DNA from: Myxococcales bacterium
GTDB taxonomy: Bacteria; Myxococcota_A; UBA9160; UBA4427
Assembly: GCA_012959665.1 (NCBI GenBank)
Contig: DUCT01000257.1
Coordinates: forward strand, 1-54,341
DNA length: 54,341 bases
Reading direction: 5' to 3'
The notes under the pieces are model-generated. The model made no database searches, was not told where the DNA came from, and was given only the letters and a program-made list of their open reading frames with translations. Positions 18,025 through 48,476 of the stretch are shown here, one piece after another. Positions within the stretch are counted from its first letter, which is position 1; the number at the start of each line of letters is the position of its first letter. The translations under genes and the position numbers were made by a program.

Positions 18025-18091
18025 GGACAAAACGTTGCCTACGGATTCCCAGAAGGCTTCGGCCACCGCGCCGAACCAAAGGCGAAGGGTT

Positions 18092-24208: not shown

Positions 24209-24335
24209 CGGTTCGGAGCGAAGGGGTCAAATGAGGGAGAACGCCCCCCCACTCAGGGAAACGACCGCCGCGAAGCCTGCGAATCCCTCGGCCCCTCTGG
24301 GAGCAAGCCTCTTCGGCGAACCCAGCCGCCCCAAA

Positions 24336-24370
24336 GAAAAAGCGGCCACCCACTTGAGTGGGTGGCCGCT
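24336..24370 (-). terminator. Rho-independent terminator downstream of the PEP-CTERM gene
   Basis: 13-bp perfect stem AGCGGCCACCCAC / GTGGGTGGCCGCT with a 4-nt loop. On the minus strand it is followed by TTTTT (plus-strand AAAAA at 24336-24340). It lies 32 nt after the stop at 24402. Confidence 0.85.
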
Positions 24371-24401
24371 TGATTCTACGCCGGAGCGTCTGACCCTAAG
24401 A

Positions 24402-28826: not shown

Positions 28827-28874
28827 AAGCCTGTGGGGGAGGCCCCGGTCTTGAGAACAGAACGTCCCGGCCGA

Positions 28875-31367: not shown

Positions 31368-33254
31368 CTATTCCCCGGATCGCTCAGCCTCGGCTCTTTT
31401 GGCCTGAAGGCGAAGCCGGAAGCCCAGTTCCTTGTGCAGCATTTCGGCGTCGTCGTACAGAGCCTCCCCGATGGGCCCGGGCCGGCCGGCCGCCCTCTCA
31501 AGCACCCGCGCCGCCGCTTCGAGATCATCGACGGCCACGTAGGCCTGGGCCAGCGCCCTGGCCTTGTAGTGGCTCGGGTCGGGCAGATGTCCCAGTCGAG
31601 AAATCCAATCCCGGGCCATCGCGCGCTTGATGGACACAAACTCGGGATCGTCCTGCATGGATGCGTAGGCGGAATCCTGAAGCAGATGATCCACCCGGTT
31701 GTAGCCCCGGGCATGAGCGGCGCGCAGGTGGTCCAGGGCCGCCTCTGAATCGCCGCGTCGGGCCGCCCGACTGGCCTTGCGCGTATTGGCGGCCGCCCCG
31801 TTGGGATAATTCAGTTCGGCATCGGCCATCAAGCTCTCCGCCGAATAGAAGACACTGGCTCGCTGGTAGCTGATGAATCCAAGAACGCACAGAAGAGCAA
31901 TCGCGCCGCCGAAGAGGCCCGCGCGCAAAGAGGCGACCCGCCGCCCACCGCCCAAGCGAGTTTCGAGGCTGGGCCATGCCGACTGGCCCGCCAGCAGGGC
32001 CCCGCCAATCAGACCGGGCAGGATGAAGTAGAGGTAGCGGTCGGCCATGGGATAGGGGAGCGCCACGATGCCCGAAAGCGGGGCGAAACCAACCGCTGCC
32101 CAGATCCAGTAGGCGGCTTCCTGCCTTCGGGCCCGAAGACAGAACACGACCCTCCAGCCGAGGAGGCCGATGAGCAACACCCCGCCCAGAAACCAGGGAT
32201 CCGCCAGGGAGGCCACCGGGGGCGGTTCGTGAAAGATCGAAAGACCCGTACCGCTCACGGCCATGAGGCCGTACCGCAGCGCCACGGAAAAGATCATGCC
32301 TCCGCGAACCAGGGGATCGGAGTACAGGGGAGGCGCCAGCCCCGCCGACAGGGAGAAGGCCAGGGCTTCGGCGACCCCGAAGCCGATGACCACGGCGACC
32401 GCCGCCAAGCCCCAGCCCGCCCGGGCCCGAATGTCCTGACCGCCACCCTCCGCCGACTCTCGGCCAAGCCAGTCGAAGAGGACCACCACGAAGAGCGCCG
32501 AGGCCGCAAAGGGCTTGGCGAGCAGGGCCAGGGCGAAGAGAAGCAGGGCTATCGCCGGGCGCCGGCGGTACAGGAGAATCGTACCCAGGGAGAGCACCAG
32601 CGCCGACGAACTCTTGAGTTGGGAGATCCAGGCAACGGACTCGACGTTCGCGGGATGCAGCAGGAAAAAGGCCGCCCCCAAGGCCGCCGGCCAGGGCCGA
32701 ACCCCACTGCGCCGGAACAAGAGCCCCAGCAAGGTCGCCGCCCAGGCGTGGAGCAGGACATTCACCCAGTGGTAACCCCGGACGTCGGGACCGAAAAATT
32801 GCCACTCCACGGCGTGCAGGGTGAGATGAACCGGCGCGTAGTTCTCCACCAACTCGGCCACTTCGCTGGTGGGATTCCAGATCGCCCATGCGTTCGCGAG
32901 GCTCGGCGTGTGGATGTACTCGTTGTGCGCCACATAGTGGAGATCGTCGGAGATGAACTCCCCCTCGAGGCTCGGGGCATAGACGAGTAGGGCGAGCAGA
33001 GCGAACGCCAGGCCGAGCCCAATAGAACTTCGCGGACCGCCGGAACCGGCCGGCGAGGAGTTCCCCCCTGCCCTCTTGGGCCCCGCTTGATTCCCCCGGG
33101 ATCTGGCCAGGAGTTGCTCCTCCGTCGGTGTCCGACCCGACGCGATCCCCGAAAGGAGCGCCGTCTCTAGCGGGAATAACCCCTTGGGTGGGCTTGATGA
33201 AATCGCCAGGCATCCGCCAGGATATCCTTGAGTTCCGAGTGCCTGGGCTGCCAA
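31368..33254 (-). CDS. GT-C fold membrane protein with a C-terminal TPR domain (TMTC/DUF1736-like O-mannosyltransferase architecture); start uncertain
   Basis: LEGEFISDDLHYVAHNEYI loop motif, about 10 TM segments and a C-terminal soluble TPR-like region. The TTG at 33254 overlaps the galE 3' end by 88 nt, so the real start is probably further in. Confidence 0.6.
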   Translation of the reverse strand: MAAQALGTQGYPGGCLAISSSPPKGLFPLETALLSGIASGRTPTEEQLLARSRGNQAGPKRAGGNSSPAGSGGPRSSIGLGLAFALLALLVYAPSLEGEFISDDLHYVAHNEYIHTPSLANAWAIWNPTSEVAELVENYAPVHLTLHAVEWQFFGPDVRGYHWVNVLLHAWAATLLGLLFRRSGVRPWPAALGAAFFLLHPANVESVAWISQLKSSSALVLSLGTILLYRRRPAIALLLFALALLAKPFAASALFVVVLFDWLGRESAEGGGQDIRARAGWGLAAVAVVIGFGVAEALAFSLSAGLAPPLYSDPLVRGGMIFSVALRYGLMAVSGTGLSIFHEPPPVASLADPWFLGGVLLIGLLGWRVVFCLRARRQEAAYWIWAAVGFAPLSGIVALPYPMADRYLYFILPGLIGGALLAGQSAWPSLETRLGGGRRVASLRAGLFGGAIALLCVLGFISYQRASVFYSAESLMADAELNYPNGAAANTRKASRAARRGDSEAALDHLRAAHARGYNRVDHLLQDSAYASMQDDPEFVSIKRAMARDWISRLGHLPDPSHYKARALAQAYVAVDDLEAAARVLERAAGRPGPIGEALYDDAEMLHKELGFRLRLQAKRAEAERSGE

Positions 33255-34198
33255 CCCAGAACCTCGAATGCGCGTGTGCCCCCACTCACCAACTCGGGCG
33301 GATCACCCGGGCGGCGAGGCGCGATGCGCTCGGGAATGGGGTGGCCGGTGATTCGGCGCGCGGTCTCGATGATTTCGCGGACCGAGTAGCCTTGACCGGT
33401 ACCCAGGTTGCAGGCCAGCGCCGGCCGACCGGCCTGGAGCCGGGCTAGGGCCCGCAGGTGGGCATCCGCCAGGTCGACGATGTGGATGTAGTCCCGGACA
33501 CAGGTGCCATCGGGGGTCGGATAGTCGTTGCCGAAAATGTCGATGGCCGGGCGATGTCCCAGGGCCACGCCGAGCACCAGGGGAATCAGGTGCGTCTCGG
33601 GGGTGTGGTCTTCGCCCAGATCTCCCTCGGGCGCAGCCCCCGCAGCATTGAAATAGCGCAGAGCCGCATACCGCAAGCCATAGGCGTTGGAGTAGTCCTC
33701 CATCATGTGCTCCATGTGAAGTTTGGTCCGTCCATAGGGATTGATGGGGACCTGGGGGTTGTCCTCGGTCAGGGGCAGGGCCACCGGGATTCCGTAGGTG
33801 GCGCAGGACGACGAAAAAACCAGTTCCTGGCAGCCGGCATCCCGCATCGCCTCAAGCAGGTTCCAAGCGTTGATCACGTTCTCCCGATAGTACGTCGAGG
33901 GATCCGTCACCGACTCGCCCACATAGCACCGCGCGGCAAAGTGCATGACCGCACGCGGAGCCCAACGGGCAAAGGCCTCCTTCAGGGCTTCCCGATCCCC
34001 CAGAGTCGCCCGAACCAGTGGCGCCTTGACGACCTCGGGATGCCCGGTGGAGAAATCGTCGAAAACCACGACCGGCACGCCCCGAGCCTCAAGTGCGCGC
34101 ACCGTATGACTGCCGATATAGCCGGCTCCACCGACGACAAGCACGGGCCCCTCGAGCGTGGCGAAGTCGGCATCGGGCCCAGGGGAATCAGTGGTCAT
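33167..34198 (-). CDS. galE: UDP-glucose 4-epimerase
   Basis: VLVVGGAGYIGSH, the YGRTK catalytic context and DGTCVRDYIHVxDLA-type motifs. ATG at 34198; 34210 is the alternative. Confidence 0.9.
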   Translation of the reverse strand: MTTDSPGPDADFATLEGPVLVVGGAGYIGSHTVRALEARGVPVVVFDDFSTGHPEVVKAPLVRATLGDREALKEAFARWAPRAVMHFAARCYVGESVTDPSTYYRENVINAWNLLEAMRDAGCQELVFSSSCATYGIPVALPLTEDNPQVPINPYGRTKLHMEHMMEDYSNAYGLRYAALRYFNAAGAAPEGDLGEDHTPETHLIPLVLGVALGHRPAIDIFGNDYPTPDGTCVRDYIHIVDLADAHLRALARLQAGRPALACNLGTGQGYSVREIIETARRITGHPIPERIAPRRPGDPPELVSGGTRAFEVLGWQPRHSELKDILADAWRFHQAHPRGYSR

Positions 34199-34239
34199 GG
34201 CTCGGCGCATAATACACAAAGAGACACGGGAGCCGACAG

Positions 34240-35463
34240 ATGCTTGTGCCCAGCAAACCCCTGCCGCGTAGGGTACGATCGCCCAGAGTGGAGAAGCACG
34301 ACAGCCCCGCAGTCGAACTCAGTGTGGTCATGCCCTGCCTCAACGAGGCGGACACCCTGACCACCTGTATCAGCAAGGCGCAAGCCGCCTTCACCCAATG
34401 CGGCTGCGTGGGCGAAATCATCGTTGCCGACAACGGGAGCGTCGATGGCTGCCCGGAGATTGCCGAAGCCCACGGCGCCCGAGTCGTTCACGTGGCCGAG
34501 CGAGGTTATGGGAGCGCGCTGATGGCGGGCATCGCCGCAGCCCGGGGCCGATTCATCATCATGGGCGATGCCGACGACAGCTACGACTTCCTAGCCATCC
34601 CGAAATTCCTGAGCGAACTAAGGGCGGGCCACGATCTGGTCCAGGGCTGCCGACTGCCCGCCGGCGGGGGGTCGATCCTTCCCGGCGCCATGCCTCCACT
34701 CCATCGCTGGCTGGGCAATCCCCTGCTGTCAGCCCTCGCGCGCACCATGTTCAAACTCCCCATCAGCGACATTTACTGCGGAATGCGCGGTTTTACCCGA
34801 GCGCTCTACGACAGTCTTGAACAACGCTGCACCGGAATGGAATTTGCCACCGAGATGATCATCCGGTCGAGTCTGGGGGGCGCGCGCATCAGCCAAGTCC
34901 CCATCACGCTCCATCCCGACGGGCGCCAGAGCCACGGGCCTCACCTGCGAACCTTCCGCGACGGCTGGCGAACCCTGCGCTTTTTCCTGCTCTACAGCCC
35001 GCGCTGGCTCTTCCTGCTCCCCGGCCTTGGGCTGCTTGCCCTGGGCGCGATCGGCTACGCCCTCGCCCTACCCGGCGTGCACTTTCTCGGTGCGGAACTC
35101 GGTGCCCACACCCTGCTGGTCGCGAGCCTCGCCCTGCTGATGGGTTTTCAGTTCCTGCTCTTTGCCGTGGTGAGCAAGAGCGTCGCCGAAGGCATCGGAC
35201 TGCTCCCGGAGGATCCGCGCATGAAGCGGTTTTTTAGGGTGGCCACCCTCGAGCGCGGCATCCTGCTCGGGGGAGCAGCGCTGGTCACCGGGTTGGCATT
35301 GATTGGCGGCGCTGCCGCCGAATGGCAGCGCCTGGACTTCGGGCATCTCGACTACCCATCGACCCTGCGTCAAGTCGTGCCCGGCGTCACCCTGGCCGCC
35401 CTGGGAATTCAGACGATTCTTTCGAGTTTCTTCGTCAGCATGCTGGGAATGGGCCGGCGGTGA
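34240..35463 (+). CDS. GT2 glycosyltransferase with a C-terminal multi-TM region (polyprenyl-phosphate hexose synthase-like, DPM1/GtrB/ArnC type)
   Basis: LSVVMPCLNEADTL, VADNGSVDG and IMGDADDSYD, followed by about 4 TM helices. Confidence 0.8.
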   Translation: MLVPSKPLPRRVRSPRVEKHDSPAVELSVVMPCLNEADTLTTCISKAQAAFTQCGCVGEIIVADNGSVDGCPEIAEAHGARVVHVAERGYGSALMAGIAAARGRFIIMGDADDSYDFLAIPKFLSELRAGHDLVQGCRLPAGGGSILPGAMPPLHRWLGNPLLSALARTMFKLPISDIYCGMRGFTRALYDSLEQRCTGMEFATEMIIRSSLGGARISQVPITLHPDGRQSHGPHLRTFRDGWRTLRFFLLYSPRWLFLLPGLGLLALGAIGYALALPGVHFLGAELGAHTLLVASLALLMGFQFLLFAVVSKSVAEGIGLLPEDPRMKRFFRVATLERGILLGGAALVTGLALIGGAAAEWQRLDFGHLDYPSTLRQVVPGVTLAALGIQTILSSFFVSMLGMGRR

Positions 35464-36062
35464 ACATCGCAGAAAGAATTCACGCCGCGTATGGGACCAT
35501 GCACCGAATCCAGGTGCTTCGTCGGCATCTCGAACCCCTGCTTCCCGAGCGGGGTTCGGTCCTCGACGTGGGCTGCGGAGACGGGGCGCTGAGCCAGGAA
35601 CTCGGAGCCCAAAGACCCGGCCTCGAAATCCGTGGCATCGACGTGCGGGCCCGGCCGGACGCGCATATTCCTGTCACGCTCTTCGATGGAAAGCGCATCC
35701 CCCATGCCGACGACGCCTTCGACTGCGTCCTGCTGATCGACGTCCTTCACCACTGCGACCCCCCCGAGCCCCTGCTCGCGGAAGCCGTTCGCGTGGCCCG
35801 CCGACAAATTCTAATCAAGGATCACCTGCTCGAGGGTTTCCTCGCTGGGCCCACCCTTCGCTGGATGGATCGGGTGGGCAATGCACGGCACGGGGTGCCC
35901 CTTCCCTTTGTCTACTGGCGCGAGGCGCGCTGGCGACGGGCATGGGGGGAACTCGGTCTGGAACTCGATAGCTTTCAGGTGGAGTTGGGCCTCTACCCGC
36001 CCCCGTTGGGGATCGTCTTCAACCGGGGACTTCATTTCCTCGCCAATTTGCGACCGGGTTGA
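35460..36062 (+). CDS. Class I SAM-dependent methyltransferase
   Basis: Motif I VLDVGCGDGALS. The GTG start at 35460 overlaps the preceding TGA (GTGA), implying translational coupling. The upstream part of the track ORF overlaps the GT2 gene. Confidence 0.75.
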   Translation: MNIAERIHAAYGTMHRIQVLRRHLEPLLPERGSVLDVGCGDGALSQELGAQRPGLEIRGIDVRARPDAHIPVTLFDGKRIPHADDAFDCVLLIDVLHHCDPPEPLLAEAVRVARRQILIKDHLLEGFLAGPTLRWMDRVGNARHGVPLPFVYWREARWRRAWGELGLELDSFQVELGLYPPPLGIVFNRGLHFLANLRPG

Positions 36063-36114
36063 ACCCTTAATCCGCGAGACCGCAAAACCCCAACCCGCTG
36101 GCAGGCAAGCACAC

Positions 36115-37818
36115 ATGGACCCACCCGATCAAAGTCCCACGCGAACCCGGCGGCGCATCTTTCTCGGCTGGTTGTTTCTCGGCTGGTTGTTTCTCGCCGG
36201 GATCGCCGGGTACGCCGCCCTACCCCAGATCGACGCGCTTGGGCTCTACTACGATGAGGCCTTCCTGGCCCAACAGGCCCGGGATTTCGTAGAACCCGGA
36301 CAAGCGGGGCAACACCCAGCCAGCGTGCGCAGCGTCCAACTCATGGGTCGCCCTTTTCCCGTGCGCAATGCGGTCTACCTGGGCTCACTCAAGAGCCAGT
36401 TGCTGATCCCCGCGCTGGCTTTGTCCGGCTCCAGCCCGCGAACGGTTCGCCTCGCGACCTTCGCCACCGCGTGGCTCGCCCTCGGACTCGCGATGCTCTG
36501 GGTCGCTCGCGTCTTTGGGGAAGGCGCCGCCGGACTCATGGGCTTGCTGGTGGCCAGCGATCCGACCTTCTTCTTTCTCTCTCAATTTGAATGGGGTCCC
36601 TTTACGACCAATTTCCTGTGCCGAGCGGGGGCGGCGCTGTGCATCGTCCTGGCCTGGCGAAGCGAGTCGGTTCCCCGGGCCAGCGCCTGGGCCCTGGGCG
36701 GCGGCGCTCTGCTGGGCTTGGGCGTCTTCAGCCGAGCCGATTTCATTCTGATTCCCGGGGCGGCGGGCATCGCCCTGGCCATCCTTCGACCCGATCTGAT
36801 TCGCTCGGCATTTCGCTTTCGCCGTGGCCCCCTGATCGCGGGCACCGCGGCCTTTCTCATAACGGCGCTGCCCATGATTGGTTCGGCGTTCGCACTTCTC
36901 GACAGCGCCGGCGCCACCGCTGATCGGGGAAGTTGGCTCTTCAGGGCCCAGGTTCTCTGGCAGAGCCTCGACGGCTCCCAGTTCCTGCGTCTGATGCAAA
37001 CGGGAGGGCTCTTCAACCGGACTCCCGATGTCCTTGCCCCGGGCGGGTGGCTGGGCTGGATGGTCCTGCCCTCCGCGGGAATTCTGCTCGTCGACTTAAT
37101 CCGCCGGCAGCGCCGAGGCTCACCCGCCCGCCTCGACCCGCGCTCTTTTCTGCTCGGCTTCGCACTCCTGTTGACCTTGGTCATGCTCGCCCTCCCGGGC
37201 GCTGTACGCGCGCATCATCAACTCAACACCCTGCCCCTGCTGCACCTGATCATCGCCTGTGCGGCCCTCACCCTCTGGCGCAGTGGTGGCTCGAGGCTGA
37301 ACCGGCTCGCCCGGGGCGTGGCGTGCGCCGGAATCGCCGGGATCGTGGTGAGCAACCTTGTTCTGATCCGGCACACGGCGCAATTCATCGAGACCACGGG
37401 CGGACGCGGACGCTGGAGCCATGCCCTCGACGAGTTTGCCGGGGAAATTGATCGGGAACCCGCGAATACAGTGGTCAGCCTGGACTGGGGCTTCCACGAA
37501 CCCCTGCTCTTTCTCACCCGCCAAACCCGGCTGGTCGAGAGCATCTGGTCCCTGCCCCAAACTCTGGCCCAGGGAAACCCATGGGTTTTCGATGCCGACG
37601 CTCAGACCGTCTACCTAGTGCACGACATCCCCTACGACCTCTTCGGCTTGGGCCCGAAACTGCTGCTGGCCGCCCGCCTGGCCCAAACCCCCTCCGCCCG
37701 GATCACGCCGCACCGAGACCGAACCGGCGACCCCGCGTTCTACAGCGTGCGCTTCGCCGGCCCCCACCGACTCAGCTACGACGGCCAATTCCGGGTTCGC
37801 CCCAGGTCGGCCCAGTAA
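36115..37818 (+). CDS. GT-C fold polytopic membrane glycosyltransferase (ArnT/PMT_2, GT39/83-like)
   Basis: First-loop LGLYYDEAFLAQQARDF (the acidic DE motif typical of GT-C) and at least 11 TM segments. ATG at 36115. A 15-bp duplication at 36161-36190 encodes FLGWLFLGWL. Confidence 0.65.
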   Translation: MDPPDQSPTRTRRRIFLGWLFLGWLFLAGIAGYAALPQIDALGLYYDEAFLAQQARDFVEPGQAGQHPASVRSVQLMGRPFPVRNAVYLGSLKSQLLIPALALSGSSPRTVRLATFATAWLALGLAMLWVARVFGEGAAGLMGLLVASDPTFFFLSQFEWGPFTTNFLCRAGAALCIVLAWRSESVPRASAWALGGGALLGLGVFSRADFILIPGAAGIALAILRPDLIRSAFRFRRGPLIAGTAAFLITALPMIGSAFALLDSAGATADRGSWLFRAQVLWQSLDGSQFLRLMQTGGLFNRTPDVLAPGGWLGWMVLPSAGILLVDLIRRQRRGSPARLDPRSFLLGFALLLTLVMLALPGAVRAHHQLNTLPLLHLIIACAALTLWRSGGSRLNRLARGVACAGIAGIVVSNLVLIRHTAQFIETTGGRGRWSHALDEFAGEIDREPANTVVSLDWGFHEPLLFLTRQTRLVESIWSLPQTLAQGNPWVFDADAQTVYLVHDIPYDLFGLGPKLLLAARLAQTPSARITPHRDRTGDPAFYSVRFAGPHRLSYDGQFRVRPRSAQ

Positions 37819-37838
37819 GCCAGTCCCCGGCGGCGCGC

Positions 37839-40148
37839 TCAGCGTCCGGGCACCCGCACCTCAGCCCCCGCAAGGACCGCCGACTCGGGAACCCACAAAC
37901 GCTCAATCCCATCGTTCCGCTTGACCCGATAAGGTCCCGCCGCCTGGGTCCGTCGAGGGGTCTCGGAAAAAGCCGCCCGGTCGGTTGAGTACGGAAGACG
38001 CAGCACGGCTTCGCCGCTTTCATCCGCCACCGCGCGGGCCGCGTAGCCGAAGACCCGTCCCCGGTTCGAGCGCAGATCCAACGAGACCTCCACGGTCTCG
38101 CCCGGGAGCGCCTCGATCACCGCGCGCGCGCCGGGAACAATTTGAAAGAGCTTGTAGGCAACCCCGGCTGCCGACTGGGGACGAAAAATTTCGCTCACCC
38201 CCGCGCCGCCGGGAAGCGACTCACCCAAGAGCCGAAAGCGTGTCAACCCGGGCCGGCTGCCCGTGGCCCGCCCATCGTGGGCATGCAGTTGTCCGGCCAC
38301 CGACCAGGGCGCCTCCTGGGAGGTCGTGATCAGATACCGGCCCGCCAACACGTCCGCCCAGCCAAGCGCCCGGGCCTCTGTGCGAGCCTCGAGGAAAGCA
38401 AGCGAGGCGTCCCAATTTTTCCGGCCGATGTACCACCAAAAAGGATCCGTCGCGGTAGCCCTTCGGGCGCCGTACTGGATCGCGTGGCCAAGATTCGCGT
38501 GGGCGATCACCCCGTAAGCAGGCGGCGGCCCCGGCGACAGGTAAGCTCCGGTCTCCGGCGTCAGCGCACGGACATCGGCCATGAAGCCGGACAATGTCGC
38601 GGCGACGCTGCGGGTCGCTGCCCATGAGGGCGCCCGGTCGGCTTCGAGTGCGGCCAGGGAACTGCGCGCGCGCGGGCCGTAGACCGCGATCAGAACGGGC
38701 CACAGCAAAACGACAAGGAGCACCACCACCCCCGCTGCCCGAGCCGCGGCCCGAAGAAAGGGGCCGCGAATCCGACCGCTGAGCACGCGAACGACGCCGA
38801 TGGCCGCTACCCCGAAGAACAACGCGAAAGCCGGCGCAAAGTCATTGCCGTAGCGCCTCTGGCCCAGGGTCAGCAAGGCGAAGAAAAGCCCCCAGCTCCC
38901 GAGCAGAATGGCGCTCGCGCCGGTCGGTCGCCCGCCGCCGCGAGAACCCGCCAGACCGAAGACTGCCGCCGGGGCAAAGGGAATCGTGTACACGAGCCAG
39001 CCCCAGGAGCGCACCGGGTTGGCCCCGGCCACGCCCGCAGCCGGGGCAAAGAGCGGCCTCTGCTCGCCGGTCACCGCCCCCACACCGTCGGTCTGGAAAA
39101 GAAACTGGAAGGCCGGCTCGAGCCCATCGCGGACCTCGGGCACGAGCATCGCCCCGCACACCCCCACGGCCCCAGTTCCCGCGGCCACGAGTCCCCGGCG
39201 AAGAATTCCGCCCTCGGGCAGCCTCCACTCGCTGAGCCAAAGCGCCGTCGCCACAACCGCCACGGCCCCGGTGGCCAACACATGAAGCCAAGAAAGAGCG
39301 ATGGACGAAAACCAGCCGCCCAGGGGCTCGGGCGAGAAAAGCACCCCGGGCACCAGCAAAAGGCTGCAGGCCCCAGCCGCCGCTGCCTGGGCGACTAGAA
39401 CGCGCTGGCCGCCCCGAATAATTCCGACAGCGATCAGCAGGAAGTTCGCCAGGCCCAGATACAAGAGGCTGCCGTGCCAAGTCAGCAGCAGGAGAAGCTG
39501 CGCGGCCCCGAGCAATCCCCCCCAGCCCCTCACCCGGCGCTGCCCGGCGTCGGCCTCGAGAAGCCCCAGGCACGCCAGCAACAGCCAAGCACCCAGCATC
39601 GCCACCGCCGAGTGGTGATCGGGATTGCCAACCCGGGAATAGGCAACGCCGATGGGCAGGCACGCATAACACAGGGCCGCGGCGAAACCGACGCTCCGGG
39701 AACCCAGTAGGCTGCCCGCCCAATACACGGGGATCAGGGTAAGCGCGCCGCAGGCGGGTCCCGCCCAGGCGGCAACCTGTTCAAAGCCCCGGGGTGTGTC
39801 CGCCAAAAGGCGGGCGACGCTTCCCAGCACAAAATCGAAGAGGGGCGCCCAGGGGACAGACGCTCCGCCGGGATAATTGATGTAGGGATCAAAGAGCAGA
39901 ACCGCGGGAAAGTTGGCGAAAGTGTAGAACGCCCGGCGCAGATGGTATTGCGCGTCGGCGGGCGGGAAGACCACTTCGTCCCCCACGAAAACGAATTCAA
40001 AACCCAGGGAACGAATCCCCAGGGCGAGGGCCATCAAGCACGCGAGACCCAGACCGACCCCGGCCCACCCAAAGGCCGCGGACCCCGGGGACTCCAATGG
40101 CTTGCTCATTGTGGCCTGCTCATTGTCATCCGGCCCTCGTGCAAACAA
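37839..40148 (-). CDS. STT3/AglB-like oligosaccharyltransferase homologue with a non-canonical WWDYG position
   Basis: About 13 TM segments plus a roughly 280-aa C-terminal soluble domain. Motifs are PPADAQYHLRR and LFDPYINYPGG (EL1), SRVGNPDHH, and TGEQRP (compare SVAEHQP/TIxE). Where VxSWWDYGH is expected, the sequence reads VIAHANLGHAIQYGARR (38484-38507). Confidence 0.6.
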   Translation of the reverse strand: MFARGPDDNEQATMSKPLESPGSAAFGWAGVGLGLACLMALALGIRSLGFEFVFVGDEVVFPPADAQYHLRRAFYTFANFPAVLLFDPYINYPGGASVPWAPLFDFVLGSVARLLADTPRGFEQVAAWAGPACGALTLIPVYWAGSLLGSRSVGFAAALCYACLPIGVAYSRVGNPDHHSAVAMLGAWLLLACLGLLEADAGQRRVRGWGGLLGAAQLLLLLTWHGSLLYLGLANFLLIAVGIIRGGQRVLVAQAAAAGACSLLLVPGVLFSPEPLGGWFSSIALSWLHVLATGAVAVVATALWLSEWRLPEGGILRRGLVAAGTGAVGVCGAMLVPEVRDGLEPAFQFLFQTDGVGAVTGEQRPLFAPAAGVAGANPVRSWGWLVYTIPFAPAAVFGLAGSRGGGRPTGASAILLGSWGLFFALLTLGQRRYGNDFAPAFALFFGVAAIGVVRVLSGRIRGPFLRAAARAAGVVVLLVVLLWPVLIAVYGPRARSSLAALEADRAPSWAATRSVAATLSGFMADVRALTPETGAYLSPGPPPAYGVIAHANLGHAIQYGARRATATDPFWWYIGRKNWDASLAFLEARTEARALGWADVLAGRYLITTSQEAPWSVAGQLHAHDGRATGSRPGLTRFRLLGESLPGGAGVSEIFRPQSAAGVAYKLFQIVPGARAVIEALPGETVEVSLDLRSNRGRVFGYAARAVADESGEAVLRLPYSTDRAAFSETPRRTQAAGPYRVKRNDGIERLWVPESAVLAGAEVRVPGR

Positions 40149-40175
40149 GCCACCGGCCCGGTACCCGGGCGCGCA

Positions 40176-40775
40176 TCACGCCGCGGGAACGAGCCCGGTG
40201 GGCTCGTCGACCAGACGGTAACGGCGACCGCAGCGGCAGGCGAGGTCGGCCCCCAGAGAGGCGGCGCACTCGCACACCCAGGCGATCCGCCGGGCGGGAT
40301 TCCCCGCCACCAGAGCGTGGGCCGGCACGTCCCGGGTCACTACGGCACCCGCCGCCACGAAGGCATGCTCGCCGACTGTGTGGCCGCAAACCACGGTGAC
40401 ATTCGCGCCCAGGGACGCCCCGCGACAAATCCGGGTGGGAACGAATTCCGCCGGCGGCAGGGCCCGAACCGCCCGGGGGCGTAGGTCATTGGTGAAGGTG
40501 GCGTTGGGGCCGACGAAAACGTCGTTCTCGAGTTCGACCCCATCCCACACCTGGACGCCGTTCTTGACCACCACCCCATCGCCAACCACCGCGCCGTCCT
40601 CGATGAAGGTTTGGCCACAAAGGTTGCAGTTGCGCCCGACGACGGCTCCAGCCATCACGTGGGACAGAGCCCAGACCCGGGTTCCGGCGCCCACCGTTTC
40701 GCTCTCGCACAGGGCATGGGGATGGACGAAAACTCCGTCCGGTCTCTCTGTCAGGCTCAATTCATGCTCTCCCAT
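40176..40775 (-). CDS. Left-handed beta-helix N-acetyltransferase, WbpD/WlbB-like
   Basis: Hexapeptide repeats: VGAGTRVWALSHVMAGAVVGRNCNLCGQTFIEDGAVVGDGVVVKNGVQVWDGVELENDVFVGPNATFTND. Confidence 0.75.
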   Translation of the reverse strand: MGEHELSLTERPDGVFVHPHALCESETVGAGTRVWALSHVMAGAVVGRNCNLCGQTFIEDGAVVGDGVVVKNGVQVWDGVELENDVFVGPNATFTNDLRPRAVRALPPAEFVPTRICRGASLGANVTVVCGHTVGEHAFVAAGAVVTRDVPAHALVAGNPARRIAWVCECAASLGADLACRCGRRYRLVDEPTGLVPAA

Positions 40776-41877
40776 TTTTCACGGCAGCGGCTAGAACCGC
40801 CACCACCCTCTCCTGCTGTTCCGGGCGAATGCCCGGGAAGATAGGCAACGAAATCATCTCGTCCGACGCCCTTTCGGCCCGGGGAAAATCGCCGACGCCA
40901 TGGCCCAGAAACTCAAAAGCCCCCAAGCGGTGAATCGGATGTGGGTAGTGGATGCCCGCACCCACTTGCTCGGCGTGAAGAGCCGCCAGAACCCGGTCCC
41001 GCTCGGCCACCCGTATGGCATAGATATGCCAGACATGGCCCTCGTCTCGATTTCCGAAGGGGAGCCCGACACCTTCGAGGGGGGCCAGTAGAGCATCGTA
41101 GAGAACAGCGGCCGCCCGCCGCGCCTGATTCCAGGCGTCCAGACGACGAAGTTTCGCCAAAAGGACCACCGCCTGCAGAGCATCGAGGCGCGAATTGAAT
41201 CCGACCTGGGGGTGCTCGTATTTCACTTCGCTCCCGTAGTTGCGGAGCCGCCGGACGCGGTCCGCGAGTTCGGGGTTCCGCGTGGTCACCGCGCCCGCAT
41301 CCCCATAGGCACCGAGGTTTTTGCCCGGATAAAAACTGGTTCCGGCGAGTTCGCCGAACCCCCCGGCGGCCCGGCCATTCCGACGTGCCCCCTGGGCCTG
41401 GGCGGCGTCCTCGATGAGCGCAATTCCCGCATCCGCGGCCAGCGCCTCAAAATCCTCCTGGGCCGCGAGTTCACCAAAGAGGTCCACGCCCATCAGCGCA
41501 CGGGTCTGAGGGCCAATCCGCTCGGCAACACCTGGGAGGTCCAACCCGGTTCCCGCTTCGGCGCAGTCGACCAAAACCGGGCGCGCGCCCGCGCGCAGAA
41601 CGGCCAGGGCCGAGGCCACGAAGGTATTCGCCGGCAGGATGACCTCGTCGCCGGCGCCGATTTCCAGGGCACGCAGTCCCAATTCCAGGGCATCGGTTCC
41701 ATTGGCGACCCCGATGCAATGCTCGACGCCGCAGAATCCGGCGTATTCGTTTTCGAACTCGGCGACCGTCGGGCCGAGAACGAACTCCCCCGCCTCCATC
41801 AGACGCTCGAAACCTTCGCGAACCTCCACCCGGATTTCCCGGTGCTGGAGCGAAAGATCCACCAGGGGAATCTTCAT
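40762..41877 (-). CDS. DegT/DnrJ/EryC1/StrS-family sugar aminotransferase, WbpE-like
   Basis: MKIPLVDLSLQHREI, GVANGTDALEL and SFYPGKNLGAYGDAG (PLP-Lys). ATG at 41877 overlaps the upstream stop (ATGA). Confidence 0.85.
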   Translation of the reverse strand: MKIPLVDLSLQHREIRVEVREGFERLMEAGEFVLGPTVAEFENEYAGFCGVEHCIGVANGTDALELGLRALEIGAGDEVILPANTFVASALAVLRAGARPVLVDCAEAGTGLDLPGVAERIGPQTRALMGVDLFGELAAQEDFEALAADAGIALIEDAAQAQGARRNGRAAGGFGELAGTSFYPGKNLGAYGDAGAVTTRNPELADRVRRLRNYGSEVKYEHPQVGFNSRLDALQAVVLLAKLRRLDAWNQARRAAAVLYDALLAPLEGVGLPFGNRDEGHVWHIYAIRVAERDRVLAALHAEQVGAGIHYPHPIHRLGAFEFLGHGVGDFPRAERASDEMISLPIFPGIRPEQQERVVAVLAAAVKNGRA

Positions 41878-42917
41878 TCGCTCGGCACCCCCACTTCGCG
41901 TCCGCCCTCGCGCATTGAAAGAGAAAGCGCATCGAGCACCCGTACCACCGCCAAGCCCGCCCGGCCGTCGGAAATCGGTGTTGCCAGCCCCGACACACAG
42001 TCGAGGAAATGCTCGCATTCGTTGCGCAGGGGTTCGCTTTTCGCCACGACGGGTTCGGTGACCTCGCCCAGGTGGACACTGGTCCGAAAAGAGGAGAAGG
42101 AATCGATCAGCCCCGGACTGTCGGCTCCCCCCTTCGCGTGAAACTCCGACACCTGCTTATCGTGCAGACGGAGCGGGGTTTCCAGGTCGACATCGTCGAA
42201 GGTCAGCATCTTCTTTTCGCCGACTACGGTGATATCCCTCGACTTGCGCGGATTAAGCCACGAGGCGTGCAGGTTCACCAGGACACCGTTCGGATAGCGA
42301 AGTGTCGCAAAAACCACGTCGGCGATTCCCGGGTTGATAAACTCCCCGCCCATCGCCGAGACCGAGGTGGGCCAGGCATCCAACCAGAAACTCGCCAACG
42401 AAATATCGTGGGCGGCCAGGTCCCAAGCCGCATCGACATCGGTCCGGATGGGTCCCAGATTGGTTCGCACCATGGAGATGTAGTAGATGCGACCGAGTTC
42501 ATCCTCTTCGATGAAATCCCGCACCCTGCGCGAAGCCTCGTTGTAGAGGAAAACGTGGCCGACCATCAAAACCACACCCTTGTTTTCCGCCAGCGCGCAG
42601 AGTTCACGACTGGAGACCACCGAATCGGTCAGGGGCTTCTCGACCAGAACGTGCTTGCCCTGGGCCATGGCCCGACGAGCCAGTTCGAAATGGCTGGAGG
42701 TGGGGGTCGCAATCACCACCCCATCGAGTTCGGCATCCTCCACCACGGACTCGAAGTCCGTCCGAACCTCCACCGAAGGAAAACGGGCCCGGATCGCGGC
42801 GAGCCGATTCTCGTCCCGGTCGACCACGTAACGCACCCGACTGCGGCCGCTCATGGAAAAATTGTTAATGAGATTGGGCCCCCAATGCCCAGCGCCCACC
42901 ACGGCCAATTCGATCAT
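41874..42917 (-). CDS. Gfo/Idh/MocA-family NAD-dependent sugar oxidoreductase, WbpB-like
   Basis: MIELAVVGAGHWGPNLI Rossmann N-terminus and the EKPL motif (VLVEKPLT). It sits directly upstream of the aminotransferase and acetyltransferase. Confidence 0.8.
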   Translation of the reverse strand: MIELAVVGAGHWGPNLINNFSMSGRSRVRYVVDRDENRLAAIRARFPSVEVRTDFESVVEDAELDGVVIATPTSSHFELARRAMAQGKHVLVEKPLTDSVVSSRELCALAENKGVVLMVGHVFLYNEASRRVRDFIEEDELGRIYYISMVRTNLGPIRTDVDAAWDLAAHDISLASFWLDAWPTSVSAMGGEFINPGIADVVFATLRYPNGVLVNLHASWLNPRKSRDITVVGEKKMLTFDDVDLETPLRLHDKQVSEFHAKGGADSPGLIDSFSSFRTSVHLGEVTEPVVAKSEPLRNECEHFLDCVSGLATPISDGRAGLAVVRVLDALSLSMREGGREVGVPSE

Positions 42918-42984
42918 TCCCGGTCTTCTCCCATCTCCCGGCCGACTCTTCCTCCGCCCCGGGTCATCGTTTCCCCAGGGCCGA

Positions 42985-43707
42985 TCATTTCCGAATCCCC
43001 AGGCCGAGATAGACAAGGGGTTTGAGCATGGACCACCAGCCGGTGACCGGTTTCATCTTCGTCTGGCCCTGAGCCTTAGGGGGATAGATCTTCGTCACCG
43101 CCACTTCCTCGGTGCGATATCCCAGGCGAATCGCCCGAATGTAGAGATAGGGCTCGAGTTCGTACTCGTCCAGCCAGGCTTGGTCCAGAGTGAGCCGCGA
43201 ATCCTCAAGGATGGAGCAACGCAGCGCCCGGAAACCATTGGTCGACTCGCTCACTCGCCGGCCCGCCACTGCGGAAAAGAGCCAGGGATGAACCCGGGTG
43301 GCAATTTTTCGGTAGAAGGGCATGGGGCCAAAGTGCGCGTTGCTCTTCAGGAAGCGGGAGCCCTGAACGAAATCCGCGCGGCCCTGGGCGATGGGATCGA
43401 GCAGCAAAGGAATTTCCTCGGGCGAATCCTTGTTGTTGCCCGCCATGACCACCGCCACATCGAAGCCGCCGGCCAACGCCAACCCGTAACCGGCGCGTAT
43501 GGCCGCCCCCACCCCCGCGATGCGACCCATGGAATGGACCCGGGCCCCCTCCTCCCGCGCCACCGCGGCCGAACGATCCGTCGAGCCATCGTCCACTACA
43601 AGGATTTCATCGACCAGAGGGCGCGGCGTGCGCCGCACGACCTCGCGAATCTTCTGCTCTTCATCGAGAACCGGCGCAATCGCCATCACGGAAAGGCCTT
43701 TGTACAC
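42985..43707 (-). CDS. Small soluble GT2 glycosyltransferase (DPM1-like polyprenyl-phosphate sugar synthase type)
   Basis: IAPVLDEEQKI and ILVVDDGSTDRS; about 235 aa. An alternative ATG lies at 43686. Confidence 0.75.
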   Translation of the reverse strand: MYKGLSVMAIAPVLDEEQKIREVVRRTPRPLVDEILVVDDGSTDRSAAVAREEGARVHSMGRIAGVGAAIRAGYGLALAGGFDVAVVMAGNNKDSPEEIPLLLDPIAQGRADFVQGSRFLKSNAHFGPMPFYRKIATRVHPWLFSAVAGRRVSESTNGFRALRCSILEDSRLTLDQAWLDEYELEPYLYIRAIRLGYRTEEVAVTKIYPPKAQGQTKMKPVTGWWSMLKPLVYLGLGIRK

Positions 43708-43741
43708 GTGCGCAGTGTATCACCCAAGCCCGGAACCGGAA

Positions 43742-45160
43742 TCAGGAACCCGGATCGGTGCTGGGCTCCCGCCCTTCGATGTCACTTTCCAGCGGCGCCT
43801 CGTAACCCAGGGCCCGCAATTCCTCGATGTGCTCCGGGGCCATGGGGCCGGCCAACACCCGGGGAACGCGACGCTCGAGATAGTCGACCAGACCCCGGAA
43901 AGCCCGGGAATCCAGCTCCGCCGGACGCCACTCCCCCCCGGCTCCAAGCCGGGCGGTCTCGGATTGGGTGGGCCTTCCCGGCCCATCGGCCCGATCCGAG
44001 AGATCGGAGCCCGCGATCCGGGTCCAGGCACCCGATCCGTAGGCGGCGCTCTCGCCGTCGGTGTCGCAGAAGATCAGCCGATCCTCGGGAACCTCTTCAC
44101 CCCGCAACTGCGCGCGAAGGGGTCGGCCACTCGCCCCGGGCAAACCCGGCAGCCCCGCCAGGGCGAGCAAGGTCGGCGCGATGTCCACATGGCTCACCGG
44201 CCCGGCGATCCGCCCGGGCACCAGGCCCGGTGCCGCGACGATGAAGGGCACCCGGGCCAGTTCCGGGGACGTGGACTGGCCGTGCTGAAAGAACCATCCA
44301 TTTTCGCCCAGGCTTTCCCCATGGTCCGCCGTGAGCAGGATGACGCTGCCCCGCTCACCGCTGCGCTTCTCGACGGCGGAGATCACCTGGCCCGCCCAGT
44401 GATCCGCGTATTGAATCTCTTCGGCGTAACGGGCCGCATAGAGCGCGGGATCGCGCATTTCACCCAGGGCCTGGTAAAAGGGAATGCCCGCCCGACCAAA
44501 ATTTTCCGAGAGCACCACGAGGTCGCTCTGCAGTTTCAGGGGCACCCGGTCGACCTTGCCCGACCACCCGGGCGGGGGCGTGTAGGGACCGTGGGGATCC
44601 TGGAGGTGAAGCCAGAGAAAGATCGGCTTGCCCGGCGAACGCCCCCCCAACCAGGCCAGGGCCCGGCGGGCGGTGGCTTCGGCAAAGCGTTCGAAGTAGC
44701 GATCGCGATTCTGCTCCTGGGCGGGCAGCTCGTCGTCGTAGGTCTCAAAGCCGCGATCCAGGCCCATCCTTCGGCGCAGGACAACATTGCTGATGAAAGC
44801 CGCGGTTTCGTAGCCCGCCTCGGCGAAATGCTCGGCCAGGGTGGGAAGCCCTTCGAGTCGCGTGTCCCCGTTGCGCGACCCCACCGAATGTTCGCGTACG
44901 TACCGCGAAGTCATGATGGACGCGTGGGCCGGAGCGGTCAGGGTCGCCGCCGCAATCGCGTTCTCAAAAAGAACGCCCCGGGCCGCCAACGCGTCCATGG
45001 ACGGTGTGATCTCCAGGGGAAATCCGTAGGCGTGAATGTAATCCGGCCGGAGCGTATCCACGGTGATCAGCAGTACATCGGCGCCCGGCGCCTGAACCTG
45101 CGCTCGGCAAGCGAACTGCAGCACCAGGAGCCCAAGCAGAGCGGGAAGTCCCCTTCTCAT
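43742..45160 (-). CDS. Secreted sulfatase-fold (alkaline phosphatase superfamily) protein with Thr-x-Pro-x-His in place of Cys-x-Pro-x-Arg
   Basis: Signal peptide, LLITVDTLRPDYIHAYGF and TADHGE. The nucleophile region reads ATLTAPAHASIMTS. The C-terminal region carries LRALGY. Confidence 0.8.
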   Translation of the reverse strand: MRRGLPALLGLLVLQFACRAQVQAPGADVLLITVDTLRPDYIHAYGFPLEITPSMDALAARGVLFENAIAAATLTAPAHASIMTSRYVREHSVGSRNGDTRLEGLPTLAEHFAEAGYETAAFISNVVLRRRMGLDRGFETYDDELPAQEQNRDRYFERFAEATARRALAWLGGRSPGKPIFLWLHLQDPHGPYTPPPGWSGKVDRVPLKLQSDLVVLSENFGRAGIPFYQALGEMRDPALYAARYAEEIQYADHWAGQVISAVEKRSGERGSVILLTADHGESLGENGWFFQHGQSTSPELARVPFIVAAPGLVPGRIAGPVSHVDIAPTLLALAGLPGLPGASGRPLRAQLRGEEVPEDRLIFCDTDGESAAYGSGAWTRIAGSDLSDRADGPGRPTQSETARLGAGGEWRPAELDSRAFRGLVDYLERRVPRVLAGPMAPEHIEELRALGYEAPLESDIEGREPSTDPGS

Positions 45161-48329: not shown

Positions 48330-48476
48330 CTGCCGGAAGGGCTTCGCCCCTCGCTGCCCTCCATCGGCTCGGTCCACCCAGAACTCCCCGCACCCGGTCC
48401 TGACGCCCCCGGGTTCTCGCCAAAGAGTACGGTTCGACAGGCAGATCTCCAGACCCGGGGTAGAATCGCCCAAGCC
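48330..48476. promoter_or_regulatory. 147-bp divergent promoter region between the eight-gene minus-strand operon and the GT2/GT-C plus-strand pair
   Basis: Inferred from the divergent gene starts at 48329 (-) and 48477 (+). No consensus elements identified. Confidence 0.45.

Follow-up and report, generated by a model that had tools for sequence, protein, structure and literature searches.

What does an oligosaccharyltransferase scaffold do when the residues that read the Asn-x-Ser/Thr sequon are no longer present? This question is raised by an ORF at 37839..40148 (minus strand) of a 54,341-nucleotide stretch of DNA, referred to here as the window, from a Myxococcales bacterium (GCA_012959665.1, contig DUCT01000257.1). 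A preliminary description proposed that this ORF encodes an STT3/AglB-like transferase that retains its metal and acidic sites, but carries HANLG in place of the WWDYG motif, implying a different acceptor rule or a non-protein acceptor, with a possible link to PEP-CTERM loci. The sequence-level parts of this proposal are confirmed and strengthened by the present analysis, whereas the link to PEP-CTERM proteins is only partly supported and the nature of the acceptor remains an inference.

The ORF encodes 769 amino acids from a TTG start at 40148, but the probable true start is the ATG at 40109 (Met14), yielding a 756-aa protein, as in the NCBI call for the same gene. As GC3-based gene calling did not separate the frames at 64% GC, the precomputed gene calls of the source contig were used instead. 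An AF2 model (pLDDT 91.7, pTM 0.92) shows the ~13 TM helices and soluble C-terminal domain typical of a GT-C fold. The closest known relative is the long-type euryarchaeal oligosaccharyltransferase AglB-L of Archaeoglobus fulgidus (PDB 3waj/3wak/5gmy/7e9s; TIGR04154 subfamily, GT66). A family profile matches AfAglB-L (3waj) over the full length at E=1.1e-51, and a Foldseek search with the model finds 7e9s as the best match (E=1.6e-28, TMq 0.76), followed by eukaryotic STT3 and PglB. The TIGR04154 archaeo_STT3 model is hit at E=1.2e-75, but the score of 255.4 bits falls short of the curated cut-off of 450 bits, indicating a relative, not a member. Of the Pfam models, AglB_L1 (PF18079) exceeds its threshold (60.6 versus 23.6 bits, 1.6e-16), whereas STT3 (PF02516, 17.2 versus 24.5) and AglB_core-like (PF22627, which covers the WWDYG core, 20.8 versus 27) are sub-threshold hits, and the family is thus recognized mainly through AglB-specific models.

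The HMM alignment upholds each of the correspondences that had been made by eye. Asp65 (codon 39954..39956, minus strand) aligns with AfAglB Asp47, the first DXD or EL1 catalytic Asp, and LFD87PY aligns with WFD69PF. Asp177-His178-His179 (39612..39620, minus strand) aligns with Asp161-His162-His163, the second DXD that forms the metal site (PMC8342417). Glu362 in V-T-G-E-Q-x-P-L-F (39063..39065, minus strand) aligns with Glu360 of the TIXE motif in EL5, and Arg432 (38853..38855, minus strand) aligns with Arg426 of the lipid-phosphate site. In 252 homologues, down to ~30% identity, these residues are 91-100% conserved, with gaps in fragments accounting for the remainder (Glu362 99%, Arg432 100%), which argues for retained catalysis. 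The EL5 segment T-G-E-Q-x-P-L-F further parallels T-I-A-E-V-Y-P-F-F of AfAglB, the segment that pairs with the backbone of the acceptor peptide (PMC8342417).

In contrast, the Ser/Thr pocket appears to be gone. The sequence IAHANLGH (aa 548-555; 38484..38507, minus strand) places HANLG (550-554) exactly on WWDYG (550-554) of AfAglB. A relocated motif was considered and rejected: there is no WWD elsewhere in the protein, and its only WW, in DPFW571W572Y, is not followed by Asp and is not conserved in the family (44% and 14%, respectively). The positions equivalent to WWD are not only substituted but poorly constrained, with position 550 being H in 39% and P in 23%, position 551 P in 53% and A in 39%, and position 552 N in 50% and S in 16% of homologues; only the Gly (99%) and the following His (89%) are retained. 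The DK/MI motif, the second half of the pocket, is also missing at the sequence level, as no conserved D/K/M/I pattern is found at 608-626 and AfAglB 618-675, about 58 residues beginning with the DK-motif Lys618, is unmatched in the HMM alignment. AfAglB His81 is also replaced by Pro.

This is not the oddity of a single gene. Of the 252 aligned homologues, 226 lack the Trp residues, with the consensus [H/P][P/A][N/S][L/I]GH, and these variants form a clade that comes nearly exclusively from uncultured Myxococcota. Several genomes harbor two to three paralogues with different pocket variants, as expected for diversified acceptor or donor specificity. The intact ORF, the clade-wide motif and the conserved catalytic residues are inconsistent with a one-off degenerate pseudogene. 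No description of a WWD-less oligosaccharyltransferase clade was found in the literature searched, which did not include subscription journals.

The genomic context gives some indication of the donor. The gene ends an operon, the genes directly upstream lying on the same strand as overlapping or near-abutting ORFs. Immediately upstream is an LbH N-acetyltransferase of the NeuD/PglB/VioB family (WbpD-like, 40176..40760), preceded by a DegT/DnrJ/EryC1 sugar aminotransferase (WbpE-like, 40762..41877), a Gfo/Idh/MocA oxidoreductase (WbpB-like, 41874..42917) and a soluble GT2 whose best hits are AglJ and dolichyl-phosphate hexose transferase, of the polyprenyl-P sugar synthase type (42985..43686), all on the minus strand. 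The best NCBIfam hit of the oxidoreductase is archaeal UDP-GlcNAc 3-dehydrogenase (NF040723), although at 155 bits against a cut-off of 450, and DegT and LbH give only generic family hits. This synteny is kept in 15-16 of 49 loci at 41-92% identity. Further upstream on the minus strand are two exported sulfatase-family (PF00884) proteins (43742..46680) without an N-terminal C/SxPxR motif, one of which (sulfB) has T-A-P-A-H, with a Thr nucleophile that is phosphodiesterase-like. The first gene of the same-strand run encodes an 800-aa polytopic membrane protein of unknown family (unk800, 46677..49079). A promoter and terminator scan was uninformative, finding 0 promoter-like sites and terminator-like hits that were mostly inside ORFs.

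On the other side of the gene, a 567-aa polytopic membrane protein with a weak PMT_2 (GT-C) hit (GTC2, 36115..37818, plus strand) is convergent with the STT3-like gene, the stop codons being 20 nt apart, and is a conserved partner. It is preceded by a GT2 with a C-terminal TM domain that is AglJ/Dol-P-hexose transferase-like (34240-35463) and a SAM methyltransferase (35460-36062), which together span 34240..36062 on the plus strand, and by a UDP-glucose 4-epimerase, GalE (33167..34144, minus strand), that scores above the NCBIfam cut-off. A 521-aa membrane protein (Unk521, 31368..32933, minus strand) has a FISDD loop and a C-terminal TPR-like domain, and is a persistent partner of STT3-like paralogues (23 of 49 loci); the best fold hits of its AF2 model are all GT-C enzymes (Pmt4, STT3A, ArnT, DPY19). 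Profile searches of Unk521 and GTC2 against PDB sequences found nothing meaningful, an hhalign comparison showed no relationship between the two, and a per-member Pfam scan of the Unk521 family gave only weak TPR hits. NCBIfam gave no hit for GTC2, Unk521, unk800, the protein labelled unk649, or the PEP-CTERM protein discussed below.

Further along the window are two TPR lipoproteins of ~810-840 aa (26391..31358, plus strand; TPR2 26391-28826, TPR1 28851-31358), followed by a 342-aa secreted Gly/Thr/Ala-rich protein (24402..25430, minus strand) with a PEP-CTERM tail (FVPEPGTVLLLVSGAAGLVALGRKRMKN), a candidate acceptor or partner whose Pfam hit (PF07589) is nevertheless sub-threshold (19.0 versus 20.7 bits). 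A third, membrane-anchored sulfatase-family protein is encoded at 22637..24208 (minus strand), and copies that are 45-51% identical sit beside modules of PEP-CTERM, TPR and STT3-like paralogue genes. In eight loci, TPR2, TPR1 and the STT3-like paralogue are co-directional and abutting (at 8157/8158 in one of these), with the sulfatase and PEP-CTERM genes divergent. Whereas BLAST with the PEP-CTERM protein of the window at >=50% coverage found no homologue in other loci, this was a sensitivity artefact, as the family was recovered through a search for the tail and subsequent alignment. PEP-CTERM tails were found within 10 kb in only 10 of 72 loci, an association for which no genome-wide background rate was at hand, and in one locus a PEP-CTERM gene starts 23 nt after the STT3-like stop. 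A semi-conserved A-N-[V/L]-x-V-P-F-T segment in these proteins is a possible sequon-free Asn site, but the window protein does not align cleanly there and it carries no weight here. The PEP-CTERM gene of the window is 12.4 kb from the STT3-like gene, and no exosortase was found among the window ORFs scanned.

Taken together, the gene appears to encode a catalytically competent, metal-dependent GT-C glycosyltransferase of the archaeal AglB-L type that takes a glycan from a polyprenyl-phosphate carrier on the periplasmic face of the inner membrane. The donor most likely starts with, or contains, a 2,3-diacetamido-2,3-dideoxy hexose made by the WbpB/E/D-like genes and loaded on the lipid by the AglJ-like GT2, although no initiating phosphoglycosyltransferase or flippase was identified in the window. 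Because both halves of the Ser/Thr pocket are gone, the acceptor would not be selected through the +2 Ser/Thr of an N-x-S/T sequon. The most likely acceptors are exported envelope proteins, of which the PEP-CTERM Gly/Thr-rich family is the best candidate, and the co-operonic giant TPR lipoproteins may supply acceptor selection in trans. This is the preferred explanation but a tentative one, as activity, donor identity, the protein nature of the acceptor and the roles of the TPR and PEP-CTERM proteins are all inferred, in the absence of biochemical data for any member of a family known only from uncultured MAGs.

Comparison with characterized systems shows both similarities and differences. Like the PglBs of Campylobacter and Desulfovibrio, the protein is a bacterial, single-subunit, periplasm-facing STT3 homologue encoded inside a glycan-biosynthesis cluster with aminotransferase and acetyltransferase genes, here probably for a diacetamido sugar. 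However, PglB is only a distant match (profile E ~6e-3 by sequence, Foldseek 2e-9), and PglBs keep the WWD(Y/W)G, DGG(K/R) and MI/NL motifs (PMC12229607). The PglB sugar is 2,4-diacetamido bacillosamine on a diphosphate carrier initiated by PglC, whereas the genes here resemble the 2,3-diacetamido (Wbp/MMP035x) route and AglJ-type monophosphate loading. The Agl N-glycosylation clusters of Haloferax and Methanococcus (AglJ/AglD Dol-P-hexose synthases, AglS GT-C, AglP methyltransferase, AglB) share the parts list of two AglJ/Dol-P-hexose-transferase-like GT2s, a SAM methyltransferase, additional GT-C enzymes, an archaeal-type UDP-GlcNAc 3-dehydrogenase and an AglB-L-type transferase. All hits are nevertheless far below equivalog cut-offs, the host is a Gram-negative bacterium, the transferase lacks the sequon pocket, and sulfatase-family, TPR-lipoprotein and PEP-CTERM components are present in addition. 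In TMTC/PMT-type GT-C enzymes, acceptor selection by TPR modules is associated with a GT-C catalytic domain, reminiscent of Unk521 and of the TPR lipoproteins, but here the TPR proteins are separate lipoproteins, no interaction has been shown, and the catalytic domain is of the STT3/AglB and not the PMT type.

Loss of the peptide Ser/Thr pocket is equally what would be expected if the acceptor were no longer a peptide. The enzyme might have been recruited, like ArnT or other GT-C enzymes, to transfer its sugar or glycan onto a lipid (lipid A, core or another envelope lipid) or a growing polysaccharide, the pocket having decayed because no peptide is bound. Consistent with this idea, the pocket positions are weakly constrained, and the island holds two or more further GT-C-type proteins and three alkaline-phosphatase-superfamily proteins whose weaker hits include EptA/LtaS/OpgB-type transferases, neighbors that are typical of lipid or polysaccharide modification. 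ArnT and AftA are also among the fold matches, although far weaker than AglB. Nevertheless, the whole AglB-specific C-terminal domain (CC + P1; PF18079) and the TIXE-like peptide-pairing segment of EL5 are retained and conserved, and the co-operonic TPR lipoproteins and recurrent PEP-CTERM proteins point to protein partners. This is the strongest of the alternatives, yet a doubtful one.

A more far-reaching possibility, which is not excluded but is unlikely, is that of a sequon-independent protein glycosylation system, in which a radiation of AglB-derived transferases in Myxococcota has lost intrinsic N-x-S/T reading and the acceptors, PEP-CTERM surface proteins, are presented in trans by dedicated giant TPR lipoproteins, or alternatively in which the glycan they place, built on a Wbp-type diamino sugar, is the long-sought acceptor to which exosortase attaches PEP-CTERM proteins. 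Either version would be a new mode of bacterial protein glycosylation or sorting derived from an archaeal-type N-glycosylation module.

Considered by itself, such an anchor-building role is less likely still. By analogy with the Wbp/Vim linking sugar of T9SS cargo in Porphyromonas gingivalis, the STT3-like enzyme would place or polymerize the 2,3-diamino sugar glycan to which exosortase conjugates the new C-terminus of PEP-CTERM proteins. The WbpB/E/D-like genes lie directly upstream, the LbH acetyltransferase is missing in about half of the Gfo+DegT loci (8 versus 15-16), which would leave a free 3-amino group, and a PEP-CTERM protein family is conserved next to paralogues. C-terminal amide linkage of T9SS cargo to a Wbp/Vim sugar has been shown, and the same was speculated for PEP-CTERM systems (PMC7468200). 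However, no exosortase, VimA/FemAB-like or VimE-like gene was found in the window, T9SS and PorU are likewise absent, and the distant paralogue modules that carry PEP-CTERM genes mostly lack the Wbp-like genes, leaving the idea purely analogical.

It is improbable that the enzyme is still a conventional N-x-S/T oligosaccharyltransferase in which other residues rebuild a hydroxyl-binding pocket. Asn552 or Ser/Thr at that position (about 70% combined) and His550 (39%) could hydrogen-bond, Trp571 aligns with AfAglB Gln571, a peptide-site residue, and sister clades keep the second Trp. Yet positions 550, 552 and 571 are poorly conserved (39%, 50% and 44%) compared with ~100% for the catalytic residues, the DK/MI partner motif is absent, and every one of the ~50 functionally tested bacterial oligosaccharyltransferases keeps WWD (PMC12229607). 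Equally improbable is a dedicated hydrolase that releases free periplasmic oligosaccharides, perhaps then decorated by the phosphotransferase-like "sulfatases", or an inactive scaffold, for although oligosaccharyltransferases including AfAglB hydrolyse the lipid-linked oligosaccharide when no acceptor peptide is bound (PMC8342417), and although the peptide pocket is lost and alkaline-phosphatase-superfamily neighbors occur in 31 of 49 loci, a dedicated hydrolase clade is without precedent, paralogue diversification and the TPR/PEP-CTERM context are left unexplained, and the strict conservation of catalytic residues excludes a pure scaffold.

WWDYG is treated as the universal hallmark of STT3, AglB and PglB. 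A large clade that is under purifying selection, keeps every catalytic and lipid-phosphate residue, and has discarded both halves of the Ser/Thr pocket as judged from sequence, is a natural experiment that asks what this scaffold does when sequon reading is removed. If the acceptor is still protein, these enzymes could provide sequon-free or differently targeted glycosylation tools, where glycoengineering currently screens PglB homologues only for relaxed -2 preference (PMC12229607). If the acceptor is the exosortase target, this would address the open question of what PEP-CTERM proteins are attached to. The locus furthermore documents an archaeal-flavored, Agl-like gene set, consisting of AglB-L, AglJ-like GT2s and an archaeal-type 3-dehydrogenase, that is widespread in uncultured Myxococcota and that bears on the inter-domain transfer of N-glycosylation machinery.

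The ORF at 37839..40148 on the minus strand is present and encodes 769 aa from a TTG start, whereas the public gene call for the same contig (GCA_029936055.1, JAPOGI010000236.1) starts 13 codons later, at the ATG at nt 40109, giving a protein of 756 aa. The IAHANLGH segment corresponds to residues 548-555 (nt 38484-38507), exactly as stated in the preliminary description. Homology to oligosaccharyltransferases is not in doubt. The NCBIfam model TIGR04154 (archaeosortase-A-associated archaeal STT3) matches the protein at E=1.2e-75, although at 255 bits the hit is well under the 450-bit membership cut-off. Pfam identifies the AglB long-type peripheral domain PF18079 (1.6e-16), but the STT3 and AglB-core models give only sub-threshold hits. 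A profile built from 44 family members matches the full-length A. fulgidus AglB-L (3waj/3wak/5gmy/7e9s) at E=1.1e-51, human STT3A at 3.5e-4 and C. lari PglB at 6e-3. Similarly, an AlphaFold2 model built on that alignment is confident (pLDDT 91.7, pTM 0.92), and its best PDB fold match is AfAglB-L (7e9s, E 1.6e-28, TMq 0.76), followed by eukaryotic STT3, DPY19, PglB and ArnT.

The HMM alignment with AfAglB reproduces every motif correspondence that the preliminary description had made by eye. D65 (PPADAQYH) aligns with AfAglB D47, LFD87PY with WFD69PF, D177-H-H179 with D161-H-H163, E362 (V-T-G-E-Q-R-P-L-F) with E360 of T-I-A-E-V-Y-P-F-F, and R432 with R426, while Y-G-V-I-A-H550-A-N-L-G554-H aligns with Y-G-V-I-S-W550-W-D-Y-G554-H. 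In the AfAglB crystal structure, the Asp-His-His motif and Glu360 form the metal and catalytic center, Arg426 and His81 lie at the phosphate site, WWDYG and DK/MI together form the Ser/Thr pocket, and Asp552, Gln571 and Lys618 lie at the peptide site (PMC8342417). The protein contains no WWD. Its only WW (W571-W572, in DPFWWY) aligns with Gln571 and is not conserved in the family (44% and 14%), and there is therefore no genuine WWDxG elsewhere in the protein. At the sequence level, the second half of the pocket is also missing, as the alignment stops at AfAglB G617 and resumes at S676, leaving Lys618 of the DK motif and about 58 residues without counterpart, and family columns 608-626 show no conserved D/K/M/I pattern.

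The loss of these residues is not restricted to a single protein. A word-indexed search found 123 homologous clusters, mostly labelled as Myxococcota MAGs, and an exhaustive profile search found 5,410 proteins at E<=1e-3 and 1,839 at E<=1e-30, of which the best 150 (50%-identity representatives) all score above 450 bits. Of the 252 sequences with the motif region aligned, 226 lack the Trp at position 551. In these, position 550 is H in 39% and P in 23%, position 551 is P in 53% and A in 39%, position 552 is N in 50%, S in 16% and G in 9%, and position 553 is L/I/F, whereas G554 is conserved in 99% and H555 in 89%. In contrast, D65, D87, D177, H178, H179, E362 and R432 are conserved in essentially every sequence that covers them. 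An invariant catalytic core combined with relaxed former pocket positions is what one expects for an active enzyme that no longer uses the pocket.

A rough neighbor-joining tree, together with further homologues, shows a graded series. Archaeal-type relatives have WWDYG in this very column (homologues P0273 and P0276-P0278), a few bacterial outliers have WWDLG or xWDxG (P0247, P0260, and Geobacteraceae, Planctomycetota and gammaproteobacterial MAGs), and a middle tier, also containing Myxococcota, has xW[G/T][D/x]GH. The W-less clade contains the HANLG orthologue group nested inside it. As the tree is distance-based and midpoint-rooted, the direction of change is inferred from the universality of WWD and is not proven. 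A scan of GTDB species representatives returned 69 loci, nearly all from uncultured Myxococcota, although some are labelled Deltaproteobacteria and a few carry implausible "Spirochaetaceae" labels. Interestingly, several genomes carry 2-3 paralogues with different motif variants, such as OFTM73 (HANIGH, NPSQGH and PPHIGH), UWMA-0315 (HANLGH and LPSHGH) and MFD05684.bin.2.192 (HPNLGH and PPTLGF). In two of the related loci, L031 (7585-12223) and L040 (7575-12229), two STT3-like genes are arranged divergently side by side, one from the W-less clade (HPALGH in L040) and one from the middle tier that keeps the second Trp (PWSAGH in L040).

In the window, the gene is the last of a same-strand run with overlapping or nearly abutting ORFs, which consists of an 800-aa polytopic protein (46677-49079, minus strand), two sulfatase-family proteins, a soluble GT2, a Gfo/Idh/MocA oxidoreductase, a DegT aminotransferase, an LbH acetyltransferase and the STT3-like gene. 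The 800-aa protein (~9 TM) is conserved at the head of the STT3-like operon in 10 of 49 loci but, like a 649-aa polytopic protein (~8 TM) at 49298-51247 on the plus strand, it has no family hit in Pfam or NCBIfam. The best NCBIfam hits are archaeal in flavor, as both GT2s hit AglJ and haloarchaeal dolichyl-phosphate hexose transferase and the oxidoreductase hits archaeal UDP-GlcNAc 3-dehydrogenase, although all of these are far below equivalog cut-offs. As with WbpB/E/D in Pseudomonas and MMP0352/0351/0350 in Methanococcus, the dehydrogenase-aminotransferase-acetyltransferase trio likely makes a UDP-2,3-diacetamido-2,3-dideoxy sugar. Euryarchaeal AglBs use monophosphate-type lipid-linked glycans (PMC8342417), which fits AglJ-type loading and the absence of a PglC/WecA-like initiator within the 54-kb window, if not necessarily in the genome. 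A simple terminator scan of 33000-50000 found 28 sites against 14 +/- 3.7 in shuffled sequences, but most lie inside ORFs, and this excess is probably a composition or codon effect that does not reflect real terminators.

Converging on the gene from the other side are a GT2 with a membrane domain, a methyltransferase and a 567-aa polytopic protein with a weak PMT_2 hit (2e-5). Further on lie GalE and a 521-aa membrane protein (Unk521; 31368-32933, minus strand), which has no Pfam or NCBIfam family but belongs to a family of more than 1,000 clusters with an invariant F-x-S-D-D-x-H-Y-V loop after TM1 and a TPR-like C-terminus. The AF2 model of Unk521 (pLDDT 90.4) has only GT-C glycosyltransferases as top fold hits (Pmt4, STT3A, ArnT, DPY19 and AftA), with a Foldseek probability of 1.00 but TM-scores of only 0.34-0.44 and E of about 1e-3; it is likely an undescribed GT-C/TPR glycosyltransferase family. 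Beyond it are two ~810-840-aa TPR lipoproteins, a PEP-CTERM protein (24402-25430) and a third sulfatase-family protein. The three "sulfatase" (PF00884) proteins, at 43742-46680 and 22637-24208, lack the N-terminal C/S-x-P-x-R formylglycine motif, and one of them, sulfB, which reads ...AAATLTAPAHASIMTS, has T-A-P-A-H at the nucleophile position (T-x-P-x-H, with a Thr nucleophile as in nucleotide pyrophosphatase/phosphodiesterases). As they are the most frequent neighbors of STT3-like paralogues, these proteins are probably phosphodiesterase or phosphotransferase partners and not sulfatases. Elsewhere in the window, a DltB-like MBOAT (16594-18024, plus strand; E 7e-46, below cut-off) is flanked by two ORFs without family hits (15332-16561 and 17924-19222) and may represent an O-acyl or D-alanyl transfer module for an envelope polymer, and 1596-4180 on the minus strand holds two tandem PilT/PilU-family type IVa pilus retraction ATPases, the second of which has an N-terminal MshE-like c-di-GMP-binding motif (a sub-threshold hit).

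The conservation of this context was compared across 49 loci of >=15 kb. The orthologue group (>=41% identity) keeps two sulfatase-family genes, GT2, Gfo, DegT and, in about half, LbH on one side, and the 567-aa polytopic protein (GTC2), the methyltransferase, the membrane-domain GT2 (GT2L), Unk521 and the TPR proteins on the other. The LbH acetyltransferase is present in only 8 of the 15-16 loci that keep the Gfo and DegT genes next to the STT3-like gene, and in about half of the genomes the 3-amino group of the sugar may therefore stay free or be modified by an enzyme encoded elsewhere. Distant paralogues (33-40% identity) mostly lose the sugar-synthesis genes but keep sulfatase-family (31/49), Unk521 (23/49) and TPR (18-22/49) neighbors. 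Mapping of the gene order revealed a recurrent module in which the genes for the third sulfatase-family protein (sulfC) and the PEP-CTERM protein lie on the minus strand and are followed by TPR2, TPR1 and the STT3-like gene on the plus strand. The module is complete in loci L039, L041 and L060, partial in L032, L059, L024, L025 and L067, and rearranged in L031; in L041 the TPR1 ORF ends at 8157 and the STT3-like ORF starts at 8158. The window has the same sulfC-PEP-CTERM and TPR2-TPR1 block at 22637-31358, but Unk521 follows it, and the STT3-like gene lies 6.5 kb further on.

A search for the tail signature found 14 PEP-CTERM-like ORFs in 10 of 72 loci. Seven of these, plus the window protein, form one family of 136-342-aa, signal-peptide-bearing, Gly/Thr/Ala/Ser-rich, low-charge proteins (the shortest ORF, in L067, is truncated at its N-terminus) with nearly identical tails, F-[V/I]-P-E-P-G-T-L-L-L-L-x-S-G-V-A-G-L-x-x-x-G-R-K-R-M. 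In L048 a PEP-CTERM ORF begins 23 nt after the STT3-like stop, and in L028 three follow it. In the absence of a genome-wide background rate for PEP-CTERM genes, the association rests on conserved microsynteny across genomes whose proteins are only 35-50% identical, and not on a formal enrichment statistic; furthermore, no exosortase was found among the window ORFs scanned. The family (24402-25430 in the window, and L025, L031, L041, L060 and L067) also shows a semi-conserved A-N-[V/L]-x-V-P-F-T segment whose Asn has V, S, A or T at +2, a speculative sequon-free glycosite to which the window copy does not align cleanly.

The residues of this AglB-L-type GT-C enzyme for metal binding, lipid-phosphate binding and acceptor activation are conserved, both Ser/Thr-pocket motifs are lost, and there is a conserved operon partnership with sugar-nucleotide and polyprenyl-phosphate-sugar enzymes, other GT-C proteins, TPR lipoproteins, phosphodiesterase-like proteins and PEP-CTERM proteins. 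It is inferred that the enzyme is active and transfers a polyprenyl-phosphate-linked glycan carrying a 2,3-diacetamido sugar at the periplasmic face to an acceptor that is not chosen by N-x-S/T. A protein acceptor is tentatively favored, as the AglB-specific C-terminal domain and the EL5 peptide-pairing segment are retained and conserved, the genes most tightly coupled to the paralogues are protein-interaction modules (TPR lipoproteins) and a family of secreted proteins, and the paralogues differ precisely at the former pocket. The main rival to this idea, a lipid or glycan acceptor, is possible but less likely. A more novel and rather doubtful variant borrows from the Wbp/Vim linking sugar of the T9SS, in which the cargo C-terminus is amide-bonded to a Wbp-derived diamino sugar, and the authors of that work speculate that exosortase systems do something similar (PMC7468200); on this reading, the glycan handled here would be the exosortase acceptor. 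Retained canonical specificity through substitute residues, and a dedicated hydrolase or scaffold, are both less likely still.

Public annotation refers to members of this family as "STT3 domain-containing protein", "glycosyltransferase family 39 protein" or "hypothetical", and the literature that was searched, which did not include subscription journals, describes only minor WWD variants (WWDWG) in roughly 50 tested bacterial enzymes (PMC12229607) and yielded no report of a WWD-less clade. The protein descends from AglB-type OSTs and is inferred to work like them, but as it lacks two defining motifs (WWDYG and DK/MI) and falls below the TIGR04154 cut-off, it is not classified here as a bona fide N-oligosaccharyltransferase. 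With an as yet unproven but testable change of acceptor rule, it represents a real, conserved and undescribed departure from the AglB-type enzymes that are already known.
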